64,000 bases of DNA from an uncultured Candidatus Saccharibacteria bacterium (GCA_964432405.1 CAYSNH010000001.1:122932-186931); one strand, 5' to 3'; counted from the stretch's first letter, positions 27,573-61,448 are shown. Notes: generated from the letters alone by a model not told the origin. Numbers and translations are program-made.

Positions 27573-27836
27573 ATTACTAATATATTTATATATTAATTAT
27601 TAATAGTAGTAGTAGTTAGTAGTGTCGGACCTTTTTTGTGAATAACCTATTATAACCCTTTTATAATCGAATTAAAAATATTTTTTTAAATATGATAATC
27701 TGTTCACTTCCTGTGGATTAAGTTTGGATAAGATAGGAGTAAGTGGTTGGTAACTTTAGTCTTTGTTGAATGGGGTGTTTTTTATTAACTATTTATCCAT
27801 AACTAACTCACTAGTAATCCTCAGTTTATCCACAAG
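27573..27836. promoter_or_regulatory. Candidate oriC: DnaA-box cluster plus AT-rich unwinding element in the dnaA-dnaN intergenic region
   Basis: A perfect TTATCCACA at 27826-27834, TTATCCATA at 27793-27801, TGTGGATTA at 27713-27721, TTGGATAAG at 27725-27733, and AT-rich repeats (atatatttatatattaattattaatagtagtagtag) at about 27580-27625. Confidence 0.6.
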
Positions 27837-29198: not shown

Positions 29199-29312
29199 AT
29201 CCTTATTTTAATCACTCTCATCAACTCGTCAAAATTTCAATGAAATAAGTCTTAGTTTAATAACATGTGGATTAGTTGTGGAAAACTATATTTTCTGGTA
29301 TAAATAATTATT
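29199..29312. promoter_or_regulatory. dnaA upstream region with additional DnaA-box-like sites; divergent rpmH/dnaA promoters
   Basis: TGTGGATTA at 29265-29273 and TTGTGGAAAA at about 29275. Confidence 0.4.
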
Positions 29313-29447
29313 ATGTCAACAACATATCAACCTAAGAAAAGAAAGAGAAAGAGAGTCCACGGATTCTTAAAAAGAAGCAGTACCCCTAGCGGTCGACGGG
29401 TTATAAAGAGCCGTCGTCAAAAGGGTAGAAAAAACATTACTGTTTAA
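29313..29447 (+). CDS. rpmH: 50S ribosomal protein L34
   Basis: 44 aa, not in the ORF track; [44 protein letters not shown], a classic L34, with its stop overlapping the rnpA ATG (TAAATG). Confidence 0.85.
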
Positions 29448-30479: not shown

Positions 30480-30855
30480 GGATTTTTCTATTAACTTAGA
30501 TAATGAAGGAAGAAAATTAATAATCTTTATTAACGAAGGAGATTGGTTTAAAGCATGGGTTCCTAGGGTTATTAGCGATCTTAATCATATCGCTAAGGTT
30601 TTAGCTAATAAAAACAATCACAACCCTGTTTTTATTGATGTAAATAATTATCGCAAAGAACGAGAGAATATTATTATAGATATTGCTAAGGCTGCTGCAA
30701 GAAAAGTAGTTATTACTAAGGAAGACGTTAGATTGCCAGCTATGAACTCTTATGAAAGAAGGATTGTTCATCTAGAACTATCTACTCGTCCAGATGTAGA
30801 AACTGAAAGCGCTGGTGAGGGAGTTAGTCGCTGTGTTATTGTGAAGCCTCTTTAA
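30427..30855 (+). CDS. jag: Jag/KhpB-like R3H RNA-binding protein
   Basis: R3H motif YERRIVHLELS, in the conserved position after yidC. Overlaps the yidC end by 53 nt, so the start may lie slightly downstream. Confidence 0.8.
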   Translation: MEMTKATIQRILELVGFKDFSINLDNEGRKLIIFINEGDWFKAWVPRVISDLNHIAKVLANKNNHNPVFIDVNNYRKERENIIIDIAKAAARKVVITKEDVRLPAMNSYERRIVHLELSTRPDVETESAGEGVSRCVIVKPL

Positions 30856-31999
30856 CAACCTCTTCATCTACCCCCTCCTCTTCCTCCTCAGTCATTTCTT
30901 TAGTATCAGTTGCTAGCGTTAAGCTATAAAGCTTTCTATTAAATCTATTAATAAAATATAATTTATTATCTATTATTTTTAAGTCGATAGCATCAATGTT
31001 ATCAGATCCGTTATATAAGCTACTCGTTTTAATTGATTGATTATCATCATCAATAGTAAAAGATTTAATAACATCGTTAGATATAAACTCTCTATTTAAA
31101 TAGTCATCGGGTAGAGATGTGTTCGAAGGTATTTGATTTGGGATGGCGCAGTAAAAAATATTTTGATTAATAACACATTTAGAAGCTAGGGTTTTGAAAT
31201 CAAAATTAACAACAATTTTATTTATCTCTGAATTAATTAAGTTAAAAATTCCACCATCTTTCTTATTAAAGGCAGATGTTAATCTCCAATTCCCTTTTTG
31301 ATTAATCATTAAACCGTTACCAGAAGCCACTTTATTAATTTTTTTAGTACTTAGGTTAATTAGCCAAGCATTGGAAATATATTTGGTGGTAGGTCTATCT
31401 ATCGCGATCACCTCACTTGGCGTCACCCAGCTTAATTCAGAGCCTGTTAAATGGATATTTAAAATAGATCTAGAAGAGCCTTTTTTAAGATCTAGTATTT
31501 TTAAATTATTATTATTTAAATAAATAATCTCATTAGAGTTTTCCGGGTGCCAGTCGGCAGAGGTGGTATTTTTAGGAAGAGGTGTCCAGTTATTATCATT
31601 GGTGTTGTATATAGAAAAAAATGGTTGATTAGGATAATTAAATTTAATCATTATTTTTCTACCATCCTCAGAAGATTTAACCTTATTAATCCCCTCTATT
31701 TTTTGACTAGATATTTTTTCAGAATCTGAGCCAGTATTCTTTTTTATTTCTCCTAACGCGTTAATAATATAAATATTTTTTGTGGCCGGATTAATAGAGT
31801 AACCAAGAACATCTTCTTGTGATAAAATATTTATCTTATTTTCAGCAACCACACCAAGCTCACCATCTTTAGAGTCATCAGTTAGTAGATCCACTATTTT
31901 AAAATCTATATTACTATCTGAGTCTAAAAATAAATAAATTAAAAAACCGGTAATAATAATTATAAGAATTATTGAGATTGTTATAATAATTTTTCGCAT
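30836..31999 (-). CDS. Hypothetical N-terminally membrane-anchored protein with repetitive beta-rich (propeller-like) extracellular domain and acidic C-terminal tail
   Basis: 387 aa; TM at residues 5-25, N/S/T-rich repeats, C-terminal EEEEEGVDEE. This is the last gene of the T4SS-like block. Confidence 0.4.
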   Translation of the reverse strand: MRKIIITISIILIIIITGFLIYLFLDSDSNIDFKIVDLLTDDSKDGELGVVAENKINILSQEDVLGYSINPATKNIYIINALGEIKKNTGSDSEKISSQKIEGINKVKSSEDGRKIMIKFNYPNQPFFSIYNTNDNNWTPLPKNTTSADWHPENSNEIIYLNNNNLKILDLKKGSSRSILNIHLTGSELSWVTPSEVIAIDRPTTKYISNAWLINLSTKKINKVASGNGLMINQKGNWRLTSAFNKKDGGIFNLINSEINKIVVNFDFKTLASKCVINQNIFYCAIPNQIPSNTSLPDDYLNREFISNDVIKSFTIDDDNQSIKTSSLYNGSDNIDAIDLKIIDNKLYFINRFNRKLYSLTLATDTKEMTEEEEEGVDEEVVKEASQ

Positions 32000-32003
32000 T
32001 TAA

Positions 32004-33281
32004 TTATGGTTTAGTAGATGGTTGTTTAACATTGGGAATTTCAACGGTAAAGGTTGATTTATCAACGCGCACATCTAATATTGATGGATTAATTATATAT
32101 AAAATAGTGGTAGCTAGAGCTAAAAGAACAAGTCCAAATATAGCGCTTGTAATAATGTCTTTAGCCTCCGCTATTTTACTAGTATTACCACCTGAAACGG
32201 TCCACATCACGCCGCCGTAGGTAATCATTATAAAAGCAAGAATACCAGATATACCTAAGGCAAACTGATAAATTAAAACTATATAACCACCAATATCTTC
32301 CACTTGCTCCTTTCCTAGTATAGGAACGCAAAGTTTATAACCAAGACCATCCGGCCCACATTCTAATTTTTTAACATTCGTAATCTCAAGGCTGCCCTTA
32401 CCAGACATAAGAAAGGTTAGCTTGTCATTGTAGATTCTCATTGTAGCACTCGACCTAGTCTCTCCCCGTCGCCTTTGTTCATTAGTAACGCGCTCCGCAT
32501 AAGTCCTAGCAGCCGCTCTATTAAACTCATCTCTATTAATATCTAACCAACTTGCTGTTAAAGCAGCGTGATCCTTTATAAAACCACCCTTTCCCTCCCA
32601 TAGAGCTTGAAAAGTGGATCTATATGCCACATCACCTTCTTCAGAATCAAAATAAGCTAAAAGGTCACTTTTACCACCGTTAGCTCTAGCCTTAAAAATA
32701 CCCGAGGGGCCATACTTACTAGCCCACCTTTGATTAAGCCTGGCCTTGTCTTCTGGGTAAAGACTCATGCTCATCAACTCAGTAAAAAATAATTTTTCAT
32801 TAGTGCCATTTCCATCAGAGCCTAAAACAATTCTATCCTCAGGGTAAAGGGTTCCTTGTATAAATAATAATTTACCTCTTAAAACATCGTGACCATTATC
32901 ATTTCCTAGGCGATTTAAATCACTTGAAAAAATATTACCCGTTATTCGCTCGTACTCATCAGCTAACCTTTTTCTATACTCTCCAGACGTGCCTTTTAAT
33001 AAGTTCCAAGTAGTGAGCTCGTCTACATCAAGGTATGGATCGTAAAGAGCTCTCTTCATTGTTTGAGCATCTCTCTTAATTTTTCTAGCTAGATCCACTT
33101 CACTTAAATGATCTAATCTATCTGTTGATGTCGTTCGGTCTATATTTGTCATTGAGACATTTCTTGCCCCAGCCCTTGTTTCAGCTCCTTCTCTGGCAAG
33201 CTCTGCCTCCATAGATAATTGACTAAAGGCAATAGGAGTTGATAGAACAAATAATATTATAATAATAAAAACTTTTCTCAT
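32004..33281 (-). CDS. Secreted protein with C-terminal VirB2/TrbC-like pilin domain
   Basis: 425 aa with a signal peptide MRKVFIIIILFVLSTPIAFS. The C-terminal roughly 90 aa form two hydrophobic helices separated by VSGGNTSKIAEAKD, a pattern shared with the paralogs at 60424..61811. Confidence 0.45.
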   Translation of the reverse strand: MRKVFIIIILFVLSTPIAFSQLSMEAELAREGAETRAGARNVSMTNIDRTTSTDRLDHLSEVDLARKIKRDAQTMKRALYDPYLDVDELTTWNLLKGTSGEYRKRLADEYERITGNIFSSDLNRLGNDNGHDVLRGKLLFIQGTLYPEDRIVLGSDGNGTNEKLFFTELMSMSLYPEDKARLNQRWASKYGPSGIFKARANGGKSDLLAYFDSEEGDVAYRSTFQALWEGKGGFIKDHAALTASWLDINRDEFNRAAARTYAERVTNEQRRRGETRSSATMRIYNDKLTFLMSGKGSLEITNVKKLECGPDGLGYKLCVPILGKEQVEDIGGYIVLIYQFALGISGILAFIMITYGGVMWTVSGGNTSKIAEAKDIITSAIFGLVLLALATTILYIINPSILDVRVDKSTFTVEIPNVKQPSTKP

Positions 33282-33940
33282 TTTATTGTTAGATTTATTT
33301 TTTTAATAGCCACTTCACCAATATTTTTATTATTAATTACATTTATATTTAAATTAACAGAGGTTGGGCTGTTGTTAGTTGGTATATCTAGCTCTAAAAT
33401 ATTAGGCCTCTTAACATCCTTACCAGAGTGCTTAATATTATTAGAAAGCCAATTAAAGTTTAAATCCGATAGATTGCCTATATTAAAAAATAAGGGCCAC
33501 GCCTTAATGATACTTATTCCAGCTGGTATCGTATGATTCATAAAATTTCTTTCAATAATAACTTTGGGAATTACTTTAGGAATGATAAAGCTTTTTTCTA
33601 AATTACCTCCTTCAATATTTTTTATTAAAACCCTAACAAATATATTGCTACGACTCACATTAAATTTATTAGCAGTTATTTTTTGTAGGCCAACACCTTT
33701 TTGAAATAGCTTTCCATCTATATGCCACTCTATTAATTTATTTTTAACATTTAATAATCTACCACCCTCTATTAACTCAAAGCTCATATTTAATGAGGAG
33801 CCGTCAGTTGGCATTATTTTCCCCTGGTAAAATCCTGGTACAAAACTACCCCCCTCCCAATTAAATAAAAATTCTTGTCCTTGAGCAAGAGCGGGTAGAG
33901 ATAATAAACAAATAAAAATTATTAAAATTATACGATTCAT
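33278..33940 (-). CDS. Hypothetical secreted protein
   Basis: 220 aa, signal peptide …LPALAQGQ, N-rich beta-type sequence. Confidence 0.4.
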   Translation of the reverse strand: MNRIILIIFICLLSLPALAQGQEFLFNWEGGSFVPGFYQGKIMPTDGSSLNMSFELIEGGRLLNVKNKLIEWHIDGKLFQKGVGLQKITANKFNVSRSNIFVRVLIKNIEGGNLEKSFIIPKVIPKVIIERNFMNHTIPAGISIIKAWPLFFNIGNLSDLNFNWLSNNIKHSGKDVKRPNILELDIPTNNSPTSVNLNINVINNKNIGEVAIKKINLTIK

Positions 33941-34353
33941 ATTTTAGTAATTACTTTAGTAGTCATCCTAACCTTAGACTTCTTTTTTCTTTTAGGTCCC
34001 CTTTTAACTTTAGACCCCTTACCTGTTACCGAGCTAACTTTATGCACTGTTTCTGAGGCGATTGATTCAGGATGGTTGTGAATGTATATAGTTGAGATAA
34101 GTAAAATCGTCTTTAATGGAAGGGCGTTTAAAAAAGGAATAAACTCAATTAATACTGATGCGGCGTATAACTCACCTCTTGCTCCTCTGAACAATAACCA
34201 AAACTGAACAGGTAGCCACACAATAATATTTATAATCCATTTCACAACTTCTCCTGGTCCAATAGCAAAAGTAACCACCATTTCTATTAACTCAGCAAGA
34301 GCAACAAATCCTACTAAGATAAAAGATTCTATTAATCCAATCTTACTACCCAT
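33937..34353 (-). CDS. Small membrane protein (3-4 TM) downstream of VirB4
   Basis: 138 aa with a hydrophobic core and a basic C-terminal tail. Confidence 0.4.
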   Translation of the reverse strand: MGSKIGLIESFILVGFVALAELIEMVVTFAIGPGEVVKWIINIIVWLPVQFWLLFRGARGELYAASVLIEFIPFLNALPLKTILLISTIYIHNHPESIASETVHKVSSVTGKGSKVKRGPKRKKKSKVRMTTKVITKI

Positions 34354-36043
34354 TTAATAAATCTTTTGGATTAGTTGTAATAATCTGATCTTCAAGATAA
34401 GAAGCTACTATCTTAATAATGACATGATTTAGGCCTGCAAAAAATAGCCCCTCTCCCACAGGGGTGTCTAATAAGAAGTTTTTTTCACTATCCGTTAGAT
34501 TAAAGGTTTTTGCCAATAAATCGATCATTGCTGGTTGTTGCTTTAATAGTATTTGTAGGGCGGAGTTGGTGATAATGGGTCTTCCATAAGGAGATCTTAA
34601 AAAGTCTTCAACGTCTTGAGTGATAGTAGTAACGCCTAAGTAGTATTTTCTCGCTCTCTTAACTAAACCAAACATGAAAGAGGCGCCATCAGGATATTTC
34701 ATCATCCACCAAGCCTCATCAACTATCATTACTCGTTGTTTTAATTCACTCTTAATTAAATTCCAAATAAAGTTAACAATTATATACATTGCTATTGGTC
34801 TTAACTCCTCCTCCAGGTCTCTAATAGAAAAAACAACTAGTCGATTCCTTACATTAACGTTGGTTGGTTGGTTAACAAATCCCGCATAACTTCCCTGGGT
34901 GTATCGATATAGGCGCTGAGCCAAGGACTGACCACCAGTCAAGCTATTAAGAACAGTTTCTAAATCAGATAATAACGGCGGTTGAGCTTTAGAAAAATCT
35001 TTTCCAGGTACTATGTCTCTCGAAGCATAAGTTTCAGCCACAGCTCTGTCTAAGAGAGCTTCTTCTTCAGGAGTTATCTCTCCTAGCATTATCTTTAATA
35101 AGCCAGTTATATTAACTATGTGAGATCGTAGGGCGTCAGCAGGATCTTCATCCTTAGGGATGATTGGTAGATCAAAAGGATTGATATGATCCTTAGAGGC
35201 TAAGGAGATGTTAAAGAAGCTGCCACCTACCGCCTCGGCTAGATTTTTATATTCATTCTCGGGATCGATAATTAAAACATCCGTCCCAGTCATTAGTAGT
35301 CTCAATGCTTCCAGCTTTGCAGCATATGACTTACCAGCACCAGAGGTAGCAAAGATAACTTGATTAGCATTTTCTAGAGAGAATCGATCAAAAATAACTA
35401 AGGTGTTATTACTAAGATTGATACCTTGTAGAACCCCGCTGTCCGAGGTTAGTGTGGCAGAAACAAAAGGAAAAAATGAAGATGCTGGCGAGGAGTTAAA
35501 AGGAGATGTGATCATTAGAGAGTCTGTGCCTATCGGTAAAGCTGCATCAAAAGCCTCTATTTGCTGGAAGGTTGCCGGCTTGCTATAAACCAAGCGACTT
35601 TCTAATAAGTGATTAATCTTACCCTCCAACTTTTTTAATTCATTAACACTATCAGCATAAATAGTTATATAAACCGAGACATTAAATAAATGTTCAGTTG
35701 CTTGCTGTAGGGAGTCTCGTAGAGACTCAACATCTTGAAGAGCCGTCTCTAATTTAGGACTCCTAACCATACCCTTTTCACTTTTCTCAATTACCTGAGA
35801 TTCTATCTGAGCCGTCTTTTTTCTTAAGTTTTTTAAAGCAATAGCTGTATCTACCGGATGAACAAAGATAGATACATCCATTAATTCAGGAGCATTAATA
35901 ATTGGCGAGAACCATCCTGTGGCTAGGTAGCGAGGATAGGCTGAGATAAATATAGTCTTAGTATATTTATTACCCAGCTTTAAATAATTAGGATTAACCT
36001 CTAAAGCAGATGGAGCTATTATATTTTTAATTTCATTATTCAT
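34346..36043 (-). CDS. virB4: VirB4/TraE/TrbE-family T4SS ATPase, ATPase domain
   Basis: 565 aa; Walker A IFATSGAGKSY, the VirB4-characteristic IIDPENEY, and Walker B MIVDEAWWMM, with an overall Gram-positive-type VirB4 layout. Confidence 0.85.
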   Translation of the reverse strand: MNNEIKNIIAPSALEVNPNYLKLGNKYTKTIFISAYPRYLATGWFSPIINAPELMDVSIFVHPVDTAIALKNLRKKTAQIESQVIEKSEKGMVRSPKLETALQDVESLRDSLQQATEHLFNVSVYITIYADSVNELKKLEGKINHLLESRLVYSKPATFQQIEAFDAALPIGTDSLMITSPFNSSPASSFFPFVSATLTSDSGVLQGINLSNNTLVIFDRFSLENANQVIFATSGAGKSYAAKLEALRLLMTGTDVLIIDPENEYKNLAEAVGGSFFNISLASKDHINPFDLPIIPKDEDPADALRSHIVNITGLLKIMLGEITPEEEALLDRAVAETYASRDIVPGKDFSKAQPPLLSDLETVLNSLTGGQSLAQRLYRYTQGSYAGFVNQPTNVNVRNRLVVFSIRDLEEELRPIAMYIIVNFIWNLIKSELKQRVMIVDEAWWMMKYPDGASFMFGLVKRARKYYLGVTTITQDVEDFLRSPYGRPIITNSALQILLKQQPAMIDLLAKTFNLTDSEKNFLLDTPVGEGLFFAGLNHVIIKIVASYLEDQIITTNPKDLLNG

Positions 36044-36709
36044 TTATTTTTTATCTTTCTGAATAGAGACGCCCCTTTTTTCAATTAGTGCTGGATTATA
36101 GAAGTTGTAAAATAGTTCGACGACCTCGTCTTCTGATAAAGGAACGGCTCTCAAGCCAACTCTATTTAAGCCAGCCGTCACCTGATCTACTCTCAGGTCT
36201 AATTGGCGTTTATTTTCTATGAACTGGTCACTTTCAGTCTTCTTTTCTTCCGCCCTCTTCTTTTTAAATAATCCAAATAATCCTCCAGCTATTTTTTTAC
36301 CTATTTTAGGAAGAGCGATCGGATCATAAGGAACTATAATAAAAAAAGTTTTAGACATAATAGGATTTCTTTCTACAAACGCCTTAACAAAATCTCGATA
36401 GTCAGTAATTATATTTTTTAATAAGCTGGTAGGTTCTTTTTGGTGAAGTTTTTTTAATTGATTAAGATAGTTGTCAATATTAATTTTTCGAGAATGAATT
36501 ATTTCTTGAATAGAAAAACTAAGAGAGTTCAAGAATTCTTGATAGCTAAAAATAATCAAATTCTTTTCTTCTTCAGATTTAAGATCGAAGTTAATTCCTG
36601 AAACTAATAATATTTTTCTAAAACCACCGTTTTTTAAAACAACCACATCATCTTTAATATGATCAACGCTGATAATTTCTTGAGTTGCTAAAGATTTTTG
36701 TTTGGGCAT
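36044..36709 (-). CDS. VirB4 N-terminal domain encoded as a separate ORF
   Basis: 221 aa; …DDVVVLKNGGFRKILLVSGINFDLKSEEEKN… matches the CagE/TrbE/VirB N-domain pattern. Its stop TAA is directly followed by the ATG of the ATPase ORF, and the combined length of 786 aa equals canonical VirB4. Confidence 0.55.
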   Translation of the reverse strand: MPKQKSLATQEIISVDHIKDDVVVLKNGGFRKILLVSGINFDLKSEEEKNLIIFSYQEFLNSLSFSIQEIIHSRKINIDNYLNQLKKLHQKEPTSLLKNIITDYRDFVKAFVERNPIMSKTFFIIVPYDPIALPKIGKKIAGGLFGLFKKKRAEEKKTESDQFIENKRQLDLRVDQVTAGLNRVGLRAVPLSEDEVVELFYNFYNPALIEKRGVSIQKDKK

Positions 36710-36723
36710 TGTTTTATTATAAT

Positions 36724-37194
36724 TTATCTATAATCAACACGACGAGCCACTTCTCTTTCGCCGGTAGTTTTTCTAAAAACCTCATATTCATTCTTCATTT
36801 TTTTAAGCCTTTGTAAGAAAGGAAGCATAAAAGACTTCTCTCCCTTAATAGGCTTGCTAGAAGTGTCTAGTTTTAATTTTAAGTTTGATAGTCCTTTTTT
36901 AGCAACTTGCTTACCACCCTTTTTTTTCCAGATGTAAATGCGAGGACGCCAATAATAATTAATCATAGATGTTAAGAGGGTGAGAAACGATCTGCCATTA
37001 TATTTAACAAAGGCAAAAGAGGCGCTTATTATAGCTATTAAAATAGTGAACACTAGCCAGAAATAAAAGTTTAAGACAAAGAAGCTAAAGAAGATTATTA
37101 AGAAGCCAGCTGCAACGTATAAAAACTGTTTAATAGTTAGAGGACCAACTATCCTATCTTCTATATCTATAAATTGAGGGACTTGAAAATGCAT
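36724..37194 (-). CDS. VirB3-like small membrane protein
   Basis: 156 aa; …IVGPLTIKQFLYVAAGFLIIFFSFFV… followed by a second TM helix; positioned immediately upstream of VirB4 as VirB3 usually is. Confidence 0.45.
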   Translation of the reverse strand: MHFQVPQFIDIEDRIVGPLTIKQFLYVAAGFLIIFFSFFVLNFYFWLVFTILIAIISASFAFVKYNGRSFLTLLTSMINYYWRPRIYIWKKKGGKQVAKKGLSNLKLKLDTSSKPIKGEKSFMLPFLQRLKKMKNEYEVFRKTTGEREVARRVDYR

Positions 37195-37195
37195 A

Positions 37196-37975
37196 TTAAC
37201 TAAACCATTTAGAATCTGGAATCTTAACTTTGATTTCTCCTTTAGTCGGAGGTATTTGAGGGGTGTTGAGAGGTGTGAAGAAATTGCTATAATGCACGAT
37301 TCTTTGAACCTCTACATTATCATCTAAAGAGTTCTCTATCTCAACTCTAACAGGAGCTTCTTCAACAGATCTTTCCTTAACAGGTTCTTTATAAGTGAAA
37401 GAAGACTTACTCTCTTCTTCTACAGGCTTAATCTCTCCTATTTCTTCATGAAGAACAAATGGTTGATTGGGAGTAGGTGGTTTTATTTTTTGTTTTGCTA
37501 ATGGCAGATTGTTAGGAGCCTCAGTTGCTGGCTTATTTTTAACCTTGGTGGGCTTAGCACTTAACTTAGCAGGATTAGAATATTCTGTTACCGGCGCCGG
37601 TTTATCAGGGTAGGATGATAGTTGGTCAGGTGGAGCTGTAGAGTATTCAATCATCTCATGAACATCAACGCCTATTTTCTTTAACTCTGCCTCGATTGGC
37701 TGCAAGCACTCATCATGAATTTTTTGAGTCACTTCTTTAGCAGCCTCATAATTTATTTTTAGTTGAGATCCTAGTTCATTAGCAAAGTCTCGGGGATCTA
37801 AATCCTGAACAGCTACTCGAAGAATTAATTTAGAAATAATCCTTTCCTTATCAGACTTCAAGCTAAGCTTATCATTGAGAGTAGTTATATTTTTTACTAT
37901 TTCTTCAGAGCTAAGCCAGTCTCTGATTTTATCAGATAATGAAGCGAAGGCGTTTTGTAATGATGTTGTGACCAT
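37196..37975 (-). CDS. Hypothetical protein with Pro/Lys-rich central linker
   Basis: 259 aa, no TM; lies inside the T4SS-like block. Confidence 0.4.
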   Translation of the reverse strand: MVTTSLQNAFASLSDKIRDWLSSEEIVKNITTLNDKLSLKSDKERIISKLILRVAVQDLDPRDFANELGSQLKINYEAAKEVTQKIHDECLQPIEAELKKIGVDVHEMIEYSTAPPDQLSSYPDKPAPVTEYSNPAKLSAKPTKVKNKPATEAPNNLPLAKQKIKPPTPNQPFVLHEEIGEIKPVEEESKSSFTYKEPVKERSVEEAPVRVEIENSLDDNVEVQRIVHYSNFFTPLNTPQIPPTKGEIKVKIPDSKWFS

Positions 37976-37989
37976 AATTTTTTTATATT

Positions 37990-39849
37990 CTAACTAAAAG
38001 ACGGGCCATTTATATAATCCTTTAATTCCTTTAATTCTTTGTATTCTTTTCCACCAGGCGCCATTGATATGAGATCTTCTCTTATGCCTGGACTCTCTCT
38101 TCTCCTTACTTCAGGCATTTTTATTTCTAAATGTTGGTTAATAGTGCTTTGAAGGACCTGCTTCTTTTCTGTTTGAGGTGATCGGGCTAATTCTTTTAAT
38201 TGATTTTTTGTTAGCCCCATAGCCACCTCGACCTTTCTAAGTTCTGAGGTGGCTATATTTACAATCTCTTTAGCAGGAATTTTGCCAGTCGCCTTTCTAA
38301 TTGCTTCAGCTACATTTTCAGTTCCCTCAACAAATTCCCCAGCTAAAGAAGGCATGGTTTTTAGAGCCTCTTCTTTGGAGTTCATCTTTTTAGCTGAGTT
38401 GACAAAAGGTTTTATAGCAGCCTCTCGATCACCCCCTCTTTTATCAAGAAAGTCATCTAATTGACCTCGTTTCGACAGCTCATTAAGCTTAGCAGCTTTA
38501 GCAGTCGCTCCTAATTCTGAGTAACCATATAGCTCCGTGTTATTAAGACCCTTCAACTTTTCATTTTGATAGCTGTCAACTTGCTTTTTTCTATCAGCTC
38601 TCTTTTTAGAGTCTGCATCAGCTCTGTAGCTCGATGTAAATCTTCTAATACCAGGCATTCTAGCTAGTCCAGATCCAGCAGCTCCTAACCCAGCCTTACC
38701 AGCTCGTAAAGGCAGTTTAGCAAATCCTTTACCAATCTTTTTGGTCCTACCCTTAAATCTGTTATAAAGAGCAAGTGAGCTATTTTCCACCATGTCTTTT
38801 GCGCTACTACTTATTTTTTTTGAAATAATCAGATTACCTAGCAATAATCCAATGACAATAGATAGTCGAGCTCCTGTTTCAGCAATATTAGCAATAAAAT
38901 CACTAACATTACCACCGGAACCGCTAATAACACCAAAGACGCCACTAGGATGAGTTTTGAAATTGGTCAAGAAGATAATAGTTAAATAAATAAAGAATAG
39001 TGAAACTGGCAGAAAGGCCAGGTATTCAATGAATTTTCCCTGCCATTCCTCCCAATTCTTTTTAAATTTAGGAATTGCGCTAGAGATTAAGGCTAAGGGT
39101 AGCATTATTAACAACAGGGATAAGGCTATATAACGCACTAGGACTGATAAGGACAATATCATCATAGTACCCCCTCCCAAGACGGTGAAAGCAACAACAA
39201 AAAATAGTGCTGCTAGTAATTGAAGTGATGCCTTGCCAAATTGAAAATCAGCGCTTTCTGTAAATTTATCCTCCTCCTCTTCAAGAGTATCTGTTTTCAT
39301 AGCCTCTTGTAATCCTAGGGCATGTGCAAGAGATTTGGAAAATTCACTGAAGTCCCCGTGGCTAGCGTTTGGAGTTGATTTTGTCACAAAGAAATTACTA
39401 ACAACACCAGTAGCATCAATAAATACACCGGCAATTGATAAGCTAAAGTTGATTAGAAGAGCGACTATAATAATCTTTGGCAAAAGATTTTTATATGTAT
39501 ACCCTTGCAACCTTATAATAGTTCCGATAGCAGCTGTAATTATAGCCACAACCAACAACAAGTTAGCAAAGTCGCGAGATATCTGCCAACCAACTTGTAC
39601 TAAGGGGCTGTTTATTAGATTGGCATTTAATTCCAGACCTACTTGGATTAAAAATCCAGCTATCATAAAGACAATTGCCGCTAAATAACCAATAAGATAG
39701 ACAGCAAAATACAAAAATTTTGCCATTGCGGCATCCACTGCTGAGAGCGTACTGAGAGCGCCGCCCTCTAAAAAACCTGCTTGAGCTAAGCTAGGTATTA
39801 AAATTACCAAGAGTAGAAGTAGAAGTAGTATTTTATGTCCTTTAAACAT
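37990..39849 (-). CDS. VirB6/TrbL-like polytopic membrane protein with long hydrophilic C-terminal domain
   Basis: 619 aa; a signal peptide then at least 7 TM in the first about 370 aa, and a roughly 250-aa charged tail. This resembles Gram-positive VirB6 analogues. Confidence 0.5.
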   Translation of the reverse strand: MFKGHKILLLLLLLVILIPSLAQAGFLEGGALSTLSAVDAAMAKFLYFAVYLIGYLAAIVFMIAGFLIQVGLELNANLINSPLVQVGWQISRDFANLLLVVAIITAAIGTIIRLQGYTYKNLLPKIIIVALLINFSLSIAGVFIDATGVVSNFFVTKSTPNASHGDFSEFSKSLAHALGLQEAMKTDTLEEEEDKFTESADFQFGKASLQLLAALFFVVAFTVLGGGTMMILSLSVLVRYIALSLLLIMLPLALISSAIPKFKKNWEEWQGKFIEYLAFLPVSLFFIYLTIIFLTNFKTHPSGVFGVISGSGGNVSDFIANIAETGARLSIVIGLLLGNLIISKKISSSAKDMVENSSLALYNRFKGRTKKIGKGFAKLPLRAGKAGLGAAGSGLARMPGIRRFTSSYRADADSKKRADRKKQVDSYQNEKLKGLNNTELYGYSELGATAKAAKLNELSKRGQLDDFLDKRGGDREAAIKPFVNSAKKMNSKEEALKTMPSLAGEFVEGTENVAEAIRKATGKIPAKEIVNIATSELRKVEVAMGLTKNQLKELARSPQTEKKQVLQSTINQHLEIKMPEVRRRESPGIREDLISMAPGGKEYKELKELKDYINGPSFS

Positions 39850-39854
39850 TATGA

Positions 39855-41249
39855 TTATTTACAAGCTTCTAATTGCTGTTGGGTGCTTGATATTTTTCCA
39901 GTAATTTCATTTTGAATCTGATCCTTAGTAGTCTCTTTAGTAGTTTGGAATGATTGAGCAGCTTCTTCATCTAATAAATTAACTATATTATTGTAATGAT
40001 ATGCGATAGTTGGAGTATCTTGATAAGTGGGGTTTTGGATATTAAACTTAGCACTTTCTAGCGCCTCGGTAATCTGTTTATTATTTAACAGCTCTCCATT
40101 TAGTTGATTTAAAGCCCTTTGTTCATTTTCTAGGTTGGTTTCTGTAGATATGACTTCTGGTAAGTTGCGTTGAGCCTGACAGTCTCTTAGTTCAGCCACC
40201 ATTACCACCAGCGTAGATTGACTTCCTACTAATGTAGCTAGCACCTCTCCTCCAATCTGTCTTGGTAATAGGGTCGCGTCAATTTGAGTAATAAATGTTA
40301 GTTGGTTGTCCCCAAAAGTTTTTTCATTAGCCTTAACAATAGACAGGCAATTAGTTAAGTCACTACCTCTCAATCCGGCACACGGGCCAGAACCGCTTAT
40401 GTAGCCATTAGTTGGTTTGTCAGGAGTGGTTAAGCTAATTAACCCTTCTGCACCGGACCTAATTAATCTATTAATTAAAGCATCCGCTATCGCCCCTACA
40501 TAAACAGCTAAATCATTGGCGTTAATTAGATAGTCGATATCAGAGCCAACAGCTTTTGCAACTAAAGCACCAACTTGAGCTCCTGGAGTGGTAATTGTAC
40601 AGAATCTTCCAGAAGGATCACACTTTCTAGTGCCTAAGAAGCCATTACCAGAAACAGCCTCTAAAATACTAGCCTGAGCCTCTTCAGCAATTCGACGATC
40701 TCTCTCATTCATAGCCATAAAGACAGCGCCATAATAATTGTTTTGAGGTAACCACATTTCTGAGTAAGCAAACCAACCACCGTTACGGAAGTCCTCATAA
40801 AAGTTTTCAATATTACCAACGATATCATCTAGTGTGCAAGAAACGAAATCAGTAAATCTTGGCGGGTTAAGAATGCTTAACTGAACTTGGAGGCCGAAAG
40901 GAGAGCAGAGCTCTTCTAATCCTAGCTCTAGCGCAAAGTCACCTGCTGCAATATTAGCCGCATCAGATAAGAAGCCTTTCCAGTCAGTAACAAACAAAGG
41001 CTTCCCTCCTCCTTCAACCCAGTTAACTATCTGATCGGTAACCATTGATAACAATCTTCTTTTTAGAGCTGCCACAGCTACCTCAGTAACTTTTCTAAAG
41101 AATGTTTCGTCACTAGCGTGAGTAAGTAAGACGGGGTTAGATTCAAAGACAACATCGCCAACTCCGAAAATAGCCTCGGCTTTTTGAACAGGTGTTAAAA
41201 TCAAGCTAAGTCCGATAATTCCAATTAAAATTTTATTTCTAATATTCAT
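39855..41249 (-). CDS. Hypothetical secreted protein (T4SS-like block)
   Basis: 464 aa with a signal peptide …VQKAEA, several Cys, and a Q/N-rich C-terminal coil. It could be a VirB5-like or pilus-associated component, but no motif supports this. Confidence 0.35.
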   Translation of the reverse strand: MNIRNKILIGIIGLSLILTPVQKAEAIFGVGDVVFESNPVLLTHASDETFFRKVTEVAVAALKRRLLSMVTDQIVNWVEGGGKPLFVTDWKGFLSDAANIAAGDFALELGLEELCSPFGLQVQLSILNPPRFTDFVSCTLDDIVGNIENFYEDFRNGGWFAYSEMWLPQNNYYGAVFMAMNERDRRIAEEAQASILEAVSGNGFLGTRKCDPSGRFCTITTPGAQVGALVAKAVGSDIDYLINANDLAVYVGAIADALINRLIRSGAEGLISLTTPDKPTNGYISGSGPCAGLRGSDLTNCLSIVKANEKTFGDNQLTFITQIDATLLPRQIGGEVLATLVGSQSTLVVMVAELRDCQAQRNLPEVISTETNLENEQRALNQLNGELLNNKQITEALESAKFNIQNPTYQDTPTIAYHYNNIVNLLDEEAAQSFQTTKETTKDQIQNEITGKISSTQQQLEACK

Positions 41250-42031
41250 TAAATACTTATTTGATTAATCTTTAATAAATTCAAAACCTTGCTAGTTACC
41301 TCCTTAAACCCAGCATCTATTGACGGGTTGTATCTTAAAGCCGCTAAAGCCTCCAGAGGGCTGTCATTGGCATCCCGCAACTTAGTCATAACTATCTTTT
41401 GCTTAATCATTAAAGAGATTTGTTGCTTGTGTATACTGGTAGCTGGCACAGGAACTTCTAATTTATAAAAATCAGCTATAGCACCGTCATAAGAAGAAGT
41501 TATTTTATCAAAATTATTTTTACTAAACTCCTCCCAATTTATCTTCTGTGTAGCGAAGTGCTTGTTGATTATTTTTTGGAAAGAACGTAAGTAGTTGGCA
41601 AGAGCTTCTTTGTCGGTTCGATGAGAAATATTAATCCTTGCTAATTTAACATCATTAAATCCAAGATCTATATTATTAACTTTCTCCAGCTCTTCATTAA
41701 TTATAGAGTTGGCTATATTTTCTGGATTAAGAGCCTTGGCATATTTCTGATCATCAATATCTACTAAACCATTATTATTTAATTCCTTGATATGTTGAGC
41801 TATCTTATTACCTAGCTGTTTAGTAGTCTCTTCTGCAACTGGATTAGTTTGACGTGTGTTAAGAGGAATATCCTCATTTAAGGTATTTGAAATATTTGAT
41901 TTCTCCTGAGCTGTTTTTGGTGGTGATGCTGTTGGAGTCTGAGTCTCTAATGAATTACCAAAAAATATTAATCCACCCAAAACAAACAGGCCCATAAGCA
42001 AAAACAAACCGAATTTACGCACGGATCTCAT
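41249..42031 (-). CDS. Hypothetical bitopic membrane protein (first gene of T4SS-like block)
   Basis: 260 aa with an N-terminal TM (FGLFLLMGLFVLGGLIFF). The start overlaps the preceding gene by 1 nt. Confidence 0.4.
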   Translation of the reverse strand: MRSVRKFGLFLLMGLFVLGGLIFFGNSLETQTPTASPPKTAQEKSNISNTLNEDIPLNTRQTNPVAEETTKQLGNKIAQHIKELNNNGLVDIDDQKYAKALNPENIANSIINEELEKVNNIDLGFNDVKLARINISHRTDKEALANYLRSFQKIINKHFATQKINWEEFSKNNFDKITSSYDGAIADFYKLEVPVPATSIHKQQISLMIKQKIVMTKLRDANDSPLEALAALRYNPSIDAGFKEVTSKVLNLLKINQISI

Positions 42032-42086: not shown

Positions 42087-42848
42087 TTAAAACAACCTAG
42101 ACATTTTTTGGATAGTTTCTAAATCCAAGTTTTGAGGCCTACTCCTCTCTTTTATATCTAAATCAGTTAATTTTTCTTTTATAGCATCTTTTTCTAGCTC
42201 TAATCCTTCAGAAAGATTATTTAAAATAGTTTTTCTAGGCTGTTTAAATAGAATTCTAATGAACTTATAGTAGCGCTCACTATCTTTTACGTGCTTCGTT
42301 CTTAGGCTGATAATAGCGGAGTCAACTTTAGGGGGTGGAATAAAGCTGCCAGGGGGAATAGTGGCTATTATTTTAGGATCAGCCCAATATTGAACGCTAG
42401 CAGCTAGCAGGTTCATTGATGGCGGTTTGGCAGATAATCTTTTCGCCACCTCTTTTTGCATGGTAAAGACGGTTAGAGAAGGCTTATTATCTAATTCAGC
42501 AATTATTCTCAATAAATGACCGGTGATGTAATAAGGGATGTTGCCTATTAATTTATAATCCCTATTCAATTTATTGGTTATAGGCGGCAGGGCCTTTAAC
42601 GCATCATCTTCAATAACCTCTAGGATTGCAGTACTCCTATTTTTTAATTTAAGATCGAGAGCTAATTTTTTATCTTTCTCTAAAGCTATAATCTTGCCTA
42701 TTGGAGCCTCCATTAACAGCTCGGTTAAAGATCCTCTACCCGGACCAATTTCAATAACAAAATCCCCGCTCTGTATTTCTAGAGCTTCAATTATTTTTTT
42801 CAGAATATTCTGATCTTTTAAAAAATGTTGTCCCAATCTTTTTCCCAT
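42087..42848 (-). CDS. rsmA: 16S rRNA (adenine1518/1519-N6)-dimethyltransferase
   Basis: 253 aa; LGQHFL and the SAM-binding VIEIGPGRGSLT. Confidence 0.9.
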   Translation of the reverse strand: MGKRLGQHFLKDQNILKKIIEALEIQSGDFVIEIGPGRGSLTELLMEAPIGKIIALEKDKKLALDLKLKNRSTAILEVIEDDALKALPPITNKLNRDYKLIGNIPYYITGHLLRIIAELDNKPSLTVFTMQKEVAKRLSAKPPSMNLLAASVQYWADPKIIATIPPGSFIPPPKVDSAIISLRTKHVKDSERYYKFIRILFKQPRKTILNNLSEGLELEKDAIKEKLTDLDIKERSRPQNLDLETIQKMSRLF

Positions 42849-42851
42849 ACT

Positions 42852-44627
42852 CTAATATTCAATATACATCTCATCCTCGTCAGGTAAATGGTCTTTGTCT
42901 TGCCCAAGACCTTTAAATACTAACAGCTCCTCAGGTATTTCGTATAAAAATCTTGAAGGAATACTGTTTAAGGTGAGGAATAGATTTTTTCTAGCCCTAG
43001 TCATAGCAACATACATTAATCGCCTTTCCTCTTCTAACTCTTCTGGAGAGCCTAGAGATCTTTCGTGAGGTAATAATCCTTCACTACAACCACAAACAAA
43101 AACATTATCAAACTCCAATCCTTTTGATAAATGAATTGTCATCAATTTAACTCCACCCATCCCCTCAGGCTGATCCTGGCTTTGTACCAAGCTAACCGCT
43201 TCCAAAAAAGCAGCTAAACCCTGACTTTCAAAAGAAGAGGCAAAATTAACCAGCTCCTGAATATTTTCAATCCTCTCTTTGTAGTTTTTATAATGACTTT
43301 CTAGATAGCTAATATAATTAGAGTTATTTAGAAATGAATCAATCAATTGAGTGAGGCTAAGTTCTGTTGCTAGACGGGGTAGGTTTTCAATTAACACCCT
43401 GCTACGCCTCTTACCAAAAGCTTTTTGCAGACGCTCAAAGCTAACTTCGTCATTAGGATTAAAAGCAAAGCGTAATCCAGCCAATAAATCTTTAACCTCT
43501 TTTCTTTCATAAAAGCGAATACCGCCAAAAACCTGGTAAGGTATTTGTTCGTATATTAAAGCTTGCTCAATAGCTCGTGATTGAGCGTTAGTGCGATATA
43601 AAATGGCTATTTCATCAGAACTGTTATTAGATCCTCTCAGATCCATTATTTTAGAGGTAATCCAACCAGCCTCTTCTTCTTCTGATTGAGAAGTGGTGAC
43701 ATTTATTTTATTGCCGGCTGGATTTTGAGTCCAGAGAGTTTTTTCTTTCTGAAACTTATTATGTTTAATCAATTCATTAGCCGCATTAATGATATTGGCG
43801 GAAGAGCGATAGTTTTCTTCTAATAAAACTACTTTGGCGTTAGGCCAATCTTTTTCAAAGTTAAGAAAATTACGAAAATCAGCATGTCGCCAGCCATAAA
43901 TTGATTGAGCATCATCACCCACAACGCTAAGGTTGTTATGTTTTTTAGCTAGCAGCTTTATTAATAGGTATTGGGTCACATTAGTGTCTTGAAACTCATC
44001 AACTAAAATATATTTAAATCTATTTTGATACTTTTTTAATATCTTAGGGTCATCTCTCAACAAAATAACTATTTTTTCAATCAAGTCATCAAAGTCAAAA
44101 GCATTACACTTCTTTAAGGTCTTCTCGTATATCTCATAAGCCCTAGTCATCATCTCATCATCATTAGATGAGACTAACTCACTTTTTATTTTTGAAATAT
44201 AATAACGTATTAAACGAGGCTTATACTCTTCCTTGTCCAAATGGAGCTCTTTAATAATCTTTCTAATAACAGATAAAGAATCACCGTCATCGAAGATTGT
44301 AAATTGAGAGCTTCTTCCTAAATGTTTTGCTTCAACTCTTAATAAGCGAGCTCCTAATGAATGAAAGGTGCTAACAATTAATCCCTTGGTATTAACATTT
44401 TTGGCCTGACAATCTCTTTCTATCCGAAACTTCATTTCATTAGCAGCCTTGTTGGTAAAGGTAATGGCTAATATTTTCTCAGCTGGAACACCGGACTCTA
44501 AAAGACTAATAATTCTATTAGTTAAAGTCTTTGTTTTGCCAGATCCCGCCCCTGCCGCAATCAATAAAGGACCCTCTTTATAATCAACGGCCTCTTGTTG
44601 ATTTTTGTTAAGTTTTTCTGTTATCAT
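42852..44627 (-). CDS. UvrD/PcrA/Rep-family SF1 DNA helicase (short)
   Basis: 591 aa; Walker A AGAGSGKT and helicase motifs Ia-VI (e.g. TFHS, VDEFQDT, YRS, VAMTRAR). Confidence 0.85.
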   Translation of the reverse strand: MITEKLNKNQQEAVDYKEGPLLIAAGAGSGKTKTLTNRIISLLESGVPAEKILAITFTNKAANEMKFRIERDCQAKNVNTKGLIVSTFHSLGARLLRVEAKHLGRSSQFTIFDDGDSLSVIRKIIKELHLDKEEYKPRLIRYYISKIKSELVSSNDDEMMTRAYEIYEKTLKKCNAFDFDDLIEKIVILLRDDPKILKKYQNRFKYILVDEFQDTNVTQYLLIKLLAKKHNNLSVVGDDAQSIYGWRHADFRNFLNFEKDWPNAKVVLLEENYRSSANIINAANELIKHNKFQKEKTLWTQNPAGNKINVTTSQSEEEEAGWITSKIMDLRGSNNSSDEIAILYRTNAQSRAIEQALIYEQIPYQVFGGIRFYERKEVKDLLAGLRFAFNPNDEVSFERLQKAFGKRRSRVLIENLPRLATELSLTQLIDSFLNNSNYISYLESHYKNYKERIENIQELVNFASSFESQGLAAFLEAVSLVQSQDQPEGMGGVKLMTIHLSKGLEFDNVFVCGCSEGLLPHERSLGSPEELEEERRLMYVAMTRARKNLFLTLNSIPSRFLYEIPEELLVFKGLGQDKDHLPDEDEMYIEY

Positions 44628-44641: not shown

Positions 44642-45637
44642 ATGCTTAAAAAATTATCCTTTTTAAGGCAAAAGGCGGCTCTGCCGGCTATTTTTATTAC
44701 TTGCGCCTCTATCTTCAACCTCTTTATTCTATCAGGTTTTTTCCAGCCTTTTTCTAACAATACGGTTTTAGGAGGTCCAGATCAAATGGATAATAATCAA
44801 GCGCTCTTGTCAGCGGAAACCCCCATTGATTTTGAGCCGGCTAATAATTTAGAGGATTTTGGTGGTTTTGCTATTTTAGATAGCTCTTATGTTTTAAGTC
44901 CAGGTAGCTCCTTGAGTAATACCCTCCCTACCCGAAACGGCTTAATGATTTATCGAGTCCAGTCTGGTGACAACTTATCTAGCATAGCTGCAAATTTTGG
45001 CGTATCACTTAATACTGTTTTTTGGGCTAACCCCAATTTAAATAAAAGAAGATCAATACAAGTCGGTCAGGAGATAGTAATCCTACCAGTCTCAGGAGTT
45101 AAACATGAGGTTCAAGAAGGAGAAACCCTTATCACTATAGCCTCTCTCTACAATGTTAACCCAGATCATATTTTAAAATATAATAAACAAATTGTGGCGG
45201 GTAGAAGTATTATCATTCCTGGCGCTAAGCCAACTAAAAAAACTACCCATTACACCCAATCTAAAAAGTTACCACGTCTAGCTGGACATCTTGTTGTCCC
45301 AACTACCGGTTGGAACTGGGGGCAGCTTCATTATAATAATGCCGTTGATATTGCTAATGCTTGCAACACATCAATTTATGCCGCCGCTGAAGGCTTGGTG
45401 GTTAAGGTTCGATCCGGTTGGAATGGTGGTTATGGAAATTACGTCATCATAGAACATCCTAATGGCATCTCTACCCGCTACGCTCATTTGCAAAAATCTA
45501 CCGTGTCAGTTGGTCAGTATGTTGTTCAGGGTGATCAAATTGGTCAAATGGGAAGTTCAGGTAACACTCATGGACCAACCGGTTGTCACCTTCACTTTGA
45601 AGTTGTGGGCGCTGCTAATCCATTCGCTAAAAGATAA
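44642..45637 (+). CDS. LysM-domain M23-family peptidoglycan endopeptidase
   Basis: 331 aa with an N-terminal anchor, two LysM repeats (YRVQSGDNLSSIA…, HEVQEGETLITIAS…) and an M23 catalytic region (HLHFEV). Confidence 0.8.
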   Translation: MLKKLSFLRQKAALPAIFITCASIFNLFILSGFFQPFSNNTVLGGPDQMDNNQALLSAETPIDFEPANNLEDFGGFAILDSSYVLSPGSSLSNTLPTRNGLMIYRVQSGDNLSSIAANFGVSLNTVFWANPNLNKRRSIQVGQEIVILPVSGVKHEVQEGETLITIASLYNVNPDHILKYNKQIVAGRSIIIPGAKPTKKTTHYTQSKKLPRLAGHLVVPTTGWNWGQLHYNNAVDIANACNTSIYAAAEGLVVKVRSGWNGGYGNYVIIEHPNGISTRYAHLQKSTVSVGQYVVQGDQIGQMGSSGNTHGPTGCHLHFEVVGAANPFAKR

Positions 45638-45678: not shown

Positions 45679-46680
45679 TCAGCCTTTGCTGGCGGTAGCT
45701 CCAAGACCGCCGGGTAGTCTTGATGGAGGAAAGACTTCCTCCATCATTTTTTTACTGACCTCACTTGTGTGAGCCTCAGCCTTGCTCTGGTTAAAAGTGT
45801 CAATCTCATTTTGAGCGCTCTTTCTGCCCAAGGTCGGATCCAGGTTGGGATGGAACTTCCTCCCATTTATGAGCTGAGCATTCTTTTGAAGATAGGCCGC
45901 TTTACGAGCTCTCCCCAAATGACCTTTGGTCATGTTGTCGCGAACCTCTCCAATCATCAGCTCGTCATCTCGGAAGTAGTAGAAATGGTGGCCATGGAAA
46001 GGATTGGCTACCAGCTTGTAACCGCGGTCAATAGGCTGTCGGCCAATCACAAACGATCCAGTAGTTGCTCTTTGCCCGTTGCGCAAAACAAACAGAGCAT
46101 CTTCAACATTTCTGTTGACACCAGTAGCGAGAAAGTTCTCATACTTGATGACAAAAGCTTCCACTGGTTGAAATCGAGGTGCTGTGTCCGGACAGAAACG
46201 GCATTGTTCCATTTCGCCATCAACATGAACTAGGAAGTCCAAGATTTCTTCATCAAGCTGCTCGACGCGAAGCTTGAGCTCGACAGATTCTTTTGAAGTT
46301 CCCATTTCAAGCAGCACTTCTTCAGGGGAGCGTCCTTTGAAAACGGTCTCCCGACAAACCACTTCATGTGGTTTGAAGTGCTTGTCTTCCTCGATTTTTT
46401 TAGCGACGACATCTTGTAGTCGATCGCTAAAAAATTCTCTGATGGGCTTTGTGTGCTGAACACAGTTAAGCCAAACAAAGTCGATGGGGCTCAAAAGAGT
46501 CCCCGGTCCACCAGCCAGCCAATTTCCCACGCGTCTGAGCTCATTGATTGGCAAGAAGCCTTTTCTGGCAGTACCAAACTCATCCAGCCTTTCGTTGTAC
46601 AAGACAAAAGCCTTCTCGGACAGGATACTTGGCCTGTCAATCAATAGATCTTTTTTTGAAGTTGTCGTCATGACAAACAC
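45679..46680 (-). CDS. Hypothetical protein of atypically high G+C, adjacent to tRNA-Ile
   Basis: 333 aa, with no family recognised by eye (…GHHFYYFRDDELMIGEVRDNMTKGH…). Its composition is clearly richer in G+C than flanking genes, and many overlapping spurious ORFs in other frames are consistent with that. Confidence 0.5.
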   Translation of the reverse strand: MFVMTTTSKKDLLIDRPSILSEKAFVLYNERLDEFGTARKGFLPINELRRVGNWLAGGPGTLLSPIDFVWLNCVQHTKPIREFFSDRLQDVVAKKIEEDKHFKPHEVVCRETVFKGRSPEEVLLEMGTSKESVELKLRVEQLDEEILDFLVHVDGEMEQCRFCPDTAPRFQPVEAFVIKYENFLATGVNRNVEDALFVLRNGQRATTGSFVIGRQPIDRGYKLVANPFHGHHFYYFRDDELMIGEVRDNMTKGHLGRARKAAYLQKNAQLINGRKFHPNLDPTLGRKSAQNEIDTFNQSKAEAHTSEVSKKMMEEVFPPSRLPGGLGATASKG

Positions 46681-46809
46681 TCTCCGTAATAAGGTGCTAA
46701 AAATTTTGGGCGGCTAAATTACAATAGCTCTAAAAACCCAATCAGAAACTATTTTACACCAAATTTTTTAAATGTCAAATAAAAACAGCCCTACAGGGCC
46801 ATTTAAATG

Positions 46810-60918: not shown

Positions 60919-60952
60919 TCACTTACTATAATAATCTGGTATTATTAATATA

Positions 60953-61378: not shown

Positions 61379-61448
61379 TTGTTGAAACTAAACAATCGGT
61401 TAAAATAGTAATGAAAGGTCGTTAAGGAAATCTTATTGTATTAAATTA

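Follow-up and report, generated by a model that had tools for sequence, protein, structure and literature searches.

What does a type IV secretion system (T4SS) do on a chromosome that keeps no conjugation genes beside it? This question is raised by a block of eleven genes (30836-42031, minus strand) in a 64,000-nucleotide stretch of DNA, hereafter the window, from an assembly of an uncultured Candidatus Saccharibacteria bacterium (GCA_964432405.1, CAYSNH010000001.1:122932-186931). Judged by its gene content, the block is a chromosomal T4SS of the 'Patescibacteria-clade' type, which has already been described, and not a new kind of system. Our preferred reading, which we consider likely, is that the genome belongs to the Paceibacteria (Parcubacteria group) and that its T4SS, domesticated long ago, is related to the monoderm conjugation machinery of mating-pair-formation class FATA (MPF-FATA), is inherited vertically beside the chromosomal origin of replication (oriC) and serves contact with a host. 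A first-pass annotation of this DNA had likewise proposed a T4SS-type apparatus, and profile searches upheld that proposal, directly for VirB4, VirB3/PrgI and VirB2, and through orthologues for VirB6.

The eleven open reading frames (ORFs), designated g11 to g01 in order of transcription, are all present on the minus strand at the coordinates first assigned to them. They are tightly packed: neighboring genes overlap by 1-8 nt or are 0-5 nt apart at every junction except g09/g08 and g07/g06, where the distance is 14 nt. A 55-nt gap precedes g11, the first gene of the block, and 5' of it the same-strand genes ksgA/rsmA (42087-42848) and uvrD/pcrA (42852-44627) complete the run of thirteen consecutive minus-strand genes that had been noted initially. 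At the opposite end, g01 overlaps the convergent jag by 20 nt; jag is followed by yidC and rnpA, also convergent, and then by dnaA and dnaN. The GC fraction of the block (0.32-0.38) is the same as that of the remainder of the window, and eight of the eleven products carry a signal peptide or transmembrane (TM) segments. A scan for promoters and terminators returned matches at the rate expected from shuffled sequence and was uninformative on operon structure.

We assigned the motor of the apparatus to two genes. The product of g05 (34346-36043, minus strand; 565 aa) comprises the middle and C-terminal ATPase domains of a VirB4-family ATPase and scores 377.8 bits (cutoff 325) with the NCBIfam model NF045971, 'VirB4-like conjugal transfer ATPase, CD1110 family', over profile positions 186-731 of 752. 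It also matches PF19044 P-loop_TraG (6.7e-25), PF12846 AAA_10 and PF01935 DUF87 in Pfam, its closest solved structure is the VirB4 C-domain (PDB 4AG5, 8.4e-41), followed by R388 TrwK (5e-3), and the motifs Walker A GAGKS, Walker B DEAW and IIDPENEY are confirmed in the sequence. These family assignments agree with the original VirB4 call and exclude an FtsK/HerA-type ATPase. The protein is ~70% identical to many Patescibacteria proteins, and the homologues listed with a source name come from metagenome-assembled genomes (MAGs) of Patescibacteria, Parcubacteria or Paceibacterota. The best curated model for g05 is of the MPF-FATA type, a placement made by profile and identity.

The gene directly upstream, g06 (36044-36709, minus strand; 221 aa), ends in a TAA stop that abuts the ATG of g05 and encodes a TrsD-like protein, the equivalent of the VirB4 N-terminal domain as a gene of its own. 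It matches NF041427 TrsD at 3e-9, under the family cutoff of 200 bits, aligns with VirB4 profiles at their N-terminal ends (positions 2-102, 15-183 and 100-233 of 752-894), and its precomputed annotation is PF26593 TraC-like. Since g06 matches both TrsD and the N-terminal ends of VirB4, we conclude that VirB4 is split over two genes. For comparison with related loci we assembled a synteny set with one genome per GTDB species with VirB4, comprising 80 loci from Patescibacteria, Paceibacterota, Wolfebacteria, Jorgensenbacteria and similar MAGs, in which VirB4 is 58-71% identical. The split is the usual state of VirB4 at these loci: a separate g06-type gene is found in 72 of 77, and a fused gene of ~790 aa in the other 5. 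Next in line, g07 (36724-37194, minus strand; 156 aa) encodes a PrgI/VirB3-family protein with two TM segments (PF12666 PrgI, 39.6 bits, cutoff 27; 7.9e-10) whose family is present at 75 of the 80 loci. The VirB3-like two-TM protein of the first-pass annotation is therefore real, but it does not sit directly upstream of the ATPase gene, a place taken by g06.

The candidate channel protein is encoded by g09 (37990-39849, minus strand; 619 aa), an extended VirB6/TrbL-like polytopic membrane protein. A TM scan indicates a signal-peptide-like N-terminus, ~7 TM segments and, behind them, ~265 aa of hydrophilic tail, which is probably cytoplasmic, and an NFS motif is invariant in the g09 alignment. 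Profile support comes by way of the syntenic orthologues, of which 5 of 40 match PF04610 TrbL/VirB6 (best 1.3e-7) and one matches TrbL_4; together with the fitting topology, this lends some support to the earlier description of a VirB6/TrbL-like protein with seven or more TM segments and a long tail. The g09 protein of the window is weakly matched by NF046089, CD3337/EF1877 mobilome membrane protein (1.9e-4; 20 bits against a cutoff of 120). Its downstream neighbor, g08 (37196-37975, minus strand; 259 aa), encodes a soluble, presumably cytoplasmic protein with a helical N-domain of ~100 aa, a Pro-rich linker and no TM segment. Alignment of 11 orthologues revealed the short conserved motifs PFILHxE and RVVHYSxxRTPL, and no relative of g08 was found in Pfam or the PDB.

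These two genes share a two-allele hypervariable cassette (37700-38840, minus strand), which spans g09 aa ~356-619 and the first ~90 codons of g08. Nucleotide identity to a strain-level relative (L082) is 53-78% within the cassette, compared with 94-100% elsewhere over the ~21.7 kb shared, and the boundaries are sharp; in protein terms, the g09 tail is 49% identical between the two strains and the membrane part 98-99%. There are two discrete alleles, each recovered from at least two independent samples (metagenomes). Because the cassette covers the g09 tail together with the start of g08, and because its alleles are discrete, the sequences suggest allelic replacement of an interacting g09 tail-g08 pair. 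No report of a two-allele VirB6 tail turned up in the portions of the literature consulted, in which no dedicated search for one was made.

The pilin inventory proved larger than first described. The g02 product (32004-33281, minus strand; 425 aa) begins with a signal peptide and an N-domain of ~310 aa and ends in a VirB2-like two-helix pilin domain (aa ~335-400), which matches PF18895 T4SS_pilin at 38.9 bits (cutoff 26.6; aa 337-397). Among 37 syntenic orthologues, PF18895 is found in 36, and TrbC/VirB2 also in 7. The secreted 425-aa protein ending in a VirB2-like pilin module had thus been recognized correctly; what had been missed were three stand-alone VirB2-like genes of 164, 141 and 120 aa, which form an array at 60424-61811 (plus strand), 18.4 kb from the block. 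A search with an ad-hoc pilin hidden Markov model (HMM) had also pointed to a single pilin ORF in the window, a count overturned by Pfam: the array pilins match PF18895 at 30.0, 38.3 and 36.0 bits (same cutoff), and one of them matches TrbC PF04956 (4e-5). All three share with g02 a TM - SGG..K loop - TM layout at 25-30% identity, and by sequence they are probably subunits for the same machine as the block. The array sits downstream of gyrA and a solute-binding-protein gene, and its middle pilin contains a GAGQISPV repeat, present three times, before the pilin domain.

Ahead of its pilin domain, g02 has probable annexin-like repeats, annexins being lipid-binding proteins. The two repeats (aa ~70-192; window 32700-33075, minus strand) match repeats 1-2 of annexin A5 in register (E 4.6e-4), and the aligned stretch takes in a G-N-G-T-N-E loop. 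Nearly all of the 41 PDB matches of g02 at E<=1 are annexins, with 2imd as the listed exception, and the Smith-Waterman score between g02 and annexin is 95, compared with 31.8 +/- 5.3 for 2000 shuffles, none of which reached 95 (z ~12). Against the yardstick of ~70-aa repeats that carry a K-G-x-G-T-[DE] loop and are picked up by the Annexin profile, the similarity is less clear-cut: the Pfam Annexin model did not report g02 at E<=0.1, no annexin match was obtained for g02 aa 195-335, and a crude four-repeat annexin HMM gave g02 an E-value of only 0.21, yet ranked it first of 3116 ORFs. The g02 N-domain is shared by no orthologue in the 80 loci, and pilin extensions differ between species in length and position, which together fit a variable exposed module in g02. 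A literature search on annexin in Patescibacteria found nothing relevant.

Next, we considered whether the locus belongs to the core chromosome or to a mobile element. The order uvrD-ksgA-g10-g09-g07-g06-g05-(g04)-(g03)-g02-g01-jag-yidC-dnaA-dnaN recurs in the ~40 loci long enough to judge. Conservation of the same order in ~40 species argues for an old, vertically inherited locus, and on this synteny the block belongs to the core chromosome next to oriC; it is no integrated conjugative element (ICE). The window contains 19 DnaA-box-like sites, of which 5 are located in the dnaA-dnaN spacer (about 27573-27836) and 2 more upstream of dnaA (29199-29447); the only perfect DnaA box, TTATCCACA, lies within the spacer. 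The cluster of sites at 27637-27834 probably marks oriC, which would then lie ~3 kb away from where the T4SS block ends.

Genes for conjugation were sought in every ORF of the block and, beyond it, in window ORFs of 120 aa or more, at thresholds of E 0.001-0.1 depending on the scan. Among these ORFs there was no relaxase of any mobility (MOB) class, no VirD4/TraG coupling protein, no VirB11 and no integrase, so the first-pass annotation was right that VirD4, relaxase and VirB11 are missing from the window. Its wording 'no coupling protein' holds for the 64 kb and not beyond, as most Patescibacteria genomes carry VirD4-like or type IV coupling protein (T4CP) genes, as a rule a long way from virB4, according to a recent survey (PMC12102498).

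The remaining five genes of the block encode accessory proteins. The first, g11 (41249-42031, minus strand; 260 aa), has an N-terminal membrane anchor, a disordered linker and an extracytoplasmic helical bundle; its family counts 208 cluster representatives, with no Pfam or PDB relative. The g10 product (39855-41249, minus strand; 464 aa) is Sec-secreted and all-alpha; its N-domain is conserved and contains Cys, and the three-helix bundle at its C-terminus was modelled with very high confidence. None of its 91 homologues has a functional name and Foldseek returned no significant match; a VirB5-like role is only a lead, the yardstick being the pilus-tip protein TraC (1R8I), which calls for a secreted product of ~220 aa in which a globular appendage accompanies a three-helix bundle. 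When family profiles of g08, g09, g10 and g11 were run against the sequences in the PDB, the matches were low-complexity or coiled-coil noise and nothing more. The g04 gene (33937-34353, minus strand; 138 aa) immediately follows virB4 at 14 loci and encodes a small membrane protein with ~3 TM segments, a basic tail and the conserved motif E..IP..G.LP..T. The secreted g03 protein (33278-33940, minus strand; 220 aa; signal peptide), found at 34 loci, is possibly Ig-like, as its orthologue profile weakly matches phage T4 Hoc (PDB 5vf3, 5.7e-5). The last gene, g01 (30836-31999, minus strand; 387 aa), is present at 36 loci and encodes a membrane-anchored (TM segment aa 4-22) TolB-like beta-propeller with an acidic C-terminal tail, whose orthologue profile matches TolB structures at 1e-10. 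For both g01 and g03, the family hints consist of profile-level fold similarity only.

Published work provides the context for a functional reading. Quinonero-Coronel et al. (2025) surveyed 3,035 Patescibacteria genomes and found VirB4 in 2,417, forming a monophyletic clade nested in MPF-FATA; its partners are TrsD, PrgI/VirB3, VirB6 and VirB2-like pilins, including arrays, with almost no VirB8 and with relaxases in 103 genomes only, and in Paceibacteria the virB4 neighborhood is rich in dnaA, dnaN, rnpA, ksgA and rpmH (PMC12102498). According to Wang et al. (2023), transposon sequencing (Tn-seq) showed the Saccharibacterial counterpart, pilins included, to be essential for epibiotic growth, and its composition is Gram-positive-like, without coupling or relaxase proteins (PMC10633639). 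Reviews guess at effector delivery or at the uptake of nucleotides or DNA (PMC11665869, PMC12857230).

Against this background, we propose the following model, in which the motor, pilus and wall-spanning steps are inferred by homology. The two-polypeptide VirB4 (g06 N-domain plus g05 ATPase) would dock via g07 onto the g09 channel in a single membrane. The motor would extract VirB2-like pilins (g02 and the three encoded at 60.4-61.8 kb) from the membrane, and these would be assembled into a wall-crossing pilus or conduit, with g11, g10, g03, the g01 propeller and g04 building the extracytoplasmic part. The resulting structure would contact a host bacterium and support an epibiotic lifestyle, either as a passage for macromolecules across the contact or as a means of attachment; no plasmid or ICE would be mobilized. 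The purpose most likely lies at the host interface, where the machine would translocate proteins or other macromolecules or serve for attachment, and protein export toward the host appears the most likely of the proposed activities. A role in host interaction is also the working guess of the field.

Several points weigh against this interpretation. The g09 protein of the window has no Pfam match, leaving it without direct VirB6 profile support. A VirB8-like bitopic component with an NTF2 fold was not found in the block, and the candidate for it, g11, was confidently modelled as a helical bundle (predicted local distance difference test, pLDDT, 82; predicted template modelling score, pTM, 0.72). 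With no Pfam or other curated family for 7 of the 11 block proteins, what the structure looks like outside the cell is guesswork. A VirD4-like protein may be encoded elsewhere in the genome, the essentiality data come from Saccharimonadia, a class other than Paceibacteria, and one review describes the role of the Patescibacteria T4SS as 'completely unknown', with no substrate, effector or pilus observed (PMC11665869).

Attachment might be the main function, in which case the block would encode an adhesion or contact organelle, a VirB2-type pilus with variable heads and no translocated substrate. The four pilin-domain genes in the window fit such an organelle, as do the lineage-specific extension of g02, with its length and position varying between species, the resemblance of its N-domain to annexin repeats and the lack of a coupling protein in the window. 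Nevertheless, we regard it as unlikely: the extended VirB6 with its large tail and the conserved cytoplasmic g08 suggest substrate recruitment, the annexin similarity lies beneath Pfam detection, and type IV pili already provide Saccharibacteria with adhesion and motility, according to two reviews (PMC11665869, PMC12857230).

DNA uptake is possible but less likely, and a ComB- or Ced-like importer of host or environmental DNA or nucleotides, feeding a genome without nucleotide synthesis, strikes us as distinctly improbable. The idea has been raised in the literature (PMC11665869), and it draws on the absence of relaxase and T4CP from the window, as in Helicobacter pylori ComB, on the presence of dprA and type IV pilus genes nearby, and on weak, partial matches of g05 to archaeal CedB (38 bits) and CedD (24 bits). 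The latter scores are, however, far under the respective cutoffs of 700 and 600 bits, the block has no VirB7, 9 or 10 family match, unlike ComB, and dprA is located 5.6 kb away on the other strand beside a PilO-like gene, an arrangement that fits a type IV pilus/ComEC route. In the tractable relative Southlakia epibionticum, competence requires comEC, whose deletion abolishes it while viability is kept, and the T4SS is essential (PMC12857230); transformation-type DNA uptake is therefore not the reason for its essentiality there.

A bolder proposal combines the two variable features of the locus. The annexin-like, lipid-binding head of g02 would dock the pilus on host phospholipids, and the g09 tail/g08 cassette would act as a strain-variable substrate platform that replaces the coupling protein. 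If true, the machine would be a membrane-targeting, host-tapping conduit and not a known type of secretion system; we offer this as a long shot. Conjugation is very unlikely, and an ordinary ICE or its recent remnant, with relaxase and VirD4 just outside the window, hardly merits consideration: the similarity of VirB4, TrsD and PrgI is indeed highest to monoderm conjugation proteins (CD1110 family, TrsD, PrgI), but the same housekeeping genes flank the block in ~40 species, no relaxase, T4CP or integrase occurs in the flanking DNA, which covers 30 kb to one side of the block and 22 kb to the other, there is no compositional anomaly, no tRNA gene directly adjoins the block (tRNA-Ile at 46809 comes closest, 4.8 kb off, with ksgA, uvrD and two more genes in between), and relaxases were found in only 103/3,035 genomes in the survey (PMC12102498). 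The same observations of fixed place, composition and absent genes support the first-pass view that this is not an ordinary conjugative element and rule out recent horizontal acquisition.

Returning to the preferred reading of a domesticated, host-directed T4SS, a candidate partner lies just outside the block. Divergent from uvrD, a gene at 44642-45637 (plus strand) encodes a LysM plus M23 peptidase (PF01551 2.2e-28; LysM 1.1e-17), which could by analogy be a cell-wall-remodelling, VirB1-analogous component; in the survey, some VirB1 homologues carry M23/LysM, and the association of VirB1 with virB4 is highest in Paceibacteria (PMC12102498).

Type IV pilus/competence genes are scattered around the block at 20769-22433 (minus), 45679-46680 (minus), 47081-47602 (minus) and 47622-48287 (plus). 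They include PilB (T2SSE, 1e-117) and a PilO-like protein encoded directly beside dprA, so PilB is not 'lone', as had been stated; an adjacent 333-aa ORF without a family might be another pilus-assembly protein. Elsewhere in the window, DNA polymerase I is apparently split (17012-19173, minus) into a 429-aa polymerase domain and a 290-aa 5'-3' exonuclease, and a family X (pol beta-like) polymerase is encoded at 3204-4166. A 221-aa ORF (4170-4835, minus) that matches only the first half of a major facilitator superfamily (MFS) transporter profile lies next to a 218-aa ORF without a family (4846-5502, minus), and the pair may represent a split or degraded transporter gene. An Rfam scan of the window detected tmRNA and two tRNAs and nothing else; the tmRNA gene (307-652, minus; 149.9 bits) is located by smpB (612-1055, minus), with annotated ends overlapping by ~40 nt.

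Patescibacteria are ultra-small (CPR) bacteria, and their T4SS is among the few machines shown to be essential for living as epibionts. The present locus offers a compact Paceibacteria case in which every part is listed, including six or seven conserved accessory proteins without a family, and its normally split VirB4, its pilin with a variable, possibly annexin-like fusion and its two-allele VirB6 tail provide handles for modelling and experiments.

Among known systems, Helicobacter pylori ComB is also a chromosomal, non-conjugative T4SS without relaxase or coupling protein. ComB is, however, a diderm MPF-T system with VirB7-10 homologues, and its sequence affinity to this locus is limited to VirB4-family membership. 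Extended VirB6 proteins (F TraG, Rickettsia RvhB6, CD3337/EF1877) combine a polytopic N-terminal part with a large hydrophilic C-terminal domain, as does g09; the direct match is weak (NF046089), and the tail described here exists as two alleles in one population. Closer parallels are found in the monoderm MPF-FATA systems (pGO1 TrsD/TrsE, pCF10 PrgI/PrgJ/PrgH and the C. difficile conjugative transposon (CTn) CD1110), which share a CD1110-type VirB4, a separate TrsD-like gene and a PrgI-family VirB3, and which also lack the outer-membrane core proteins VirB7, 9 and 10; in pGO1, VirB4 is divided between TrsD and TrsE just as it is between g06 and g05. The locus differs from these conjugation systems in having no relaxase, T4CP or genes linked to an origin of transfer (oriT) in the window, in its fixed core location, in the lack of a detected PrgB-type adhesin or VirB8-like PrgL/TraM and in having VirB2-like pilins, which are typical of diderm systems and which the monoderm ones lack.

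The closest match is the Patescibacteria-clade T4SS itself, represented by Southlakia epibionticum SEML1_0006-0019 and the 3,035-genome survey. It has the same VirB4, TrsD, PrgI/VirB3, VirB6 (here the VirB6-like g09) and VirB2-like pilins with an array, likewise no relaxase or T4CP at the locus and no recognizable VirB8, and, in Paceibacteria, the same chromosomal place beside dnaA, dnaN, rnpA and ksgA. The novelty implied by the first-pass annotation consequently falls away, because the system, its missing relaxase, its pilins and its place by dnaA/rnpA/ksgA are already in print (PMC12102498, PMC10633639). New here are the three pilin genes at 60424-61811, the probable annexin-like region, the two-allele cassette, the TolB-like propeller and the finding that the modelled g11 lacks a VirB8 fold; g01, g03, g04, g08, g10 and g11 are not named in the available portions of Wang et al. 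(2023) or Quinonero-Coronel et al. (2025). Compared with the Patescibacteria T4SSs described there, the present locus is set apart by a single in-block pilin that is fused to an extension of ~310 aa, and by a stand-alone pilin array 18 kb away.

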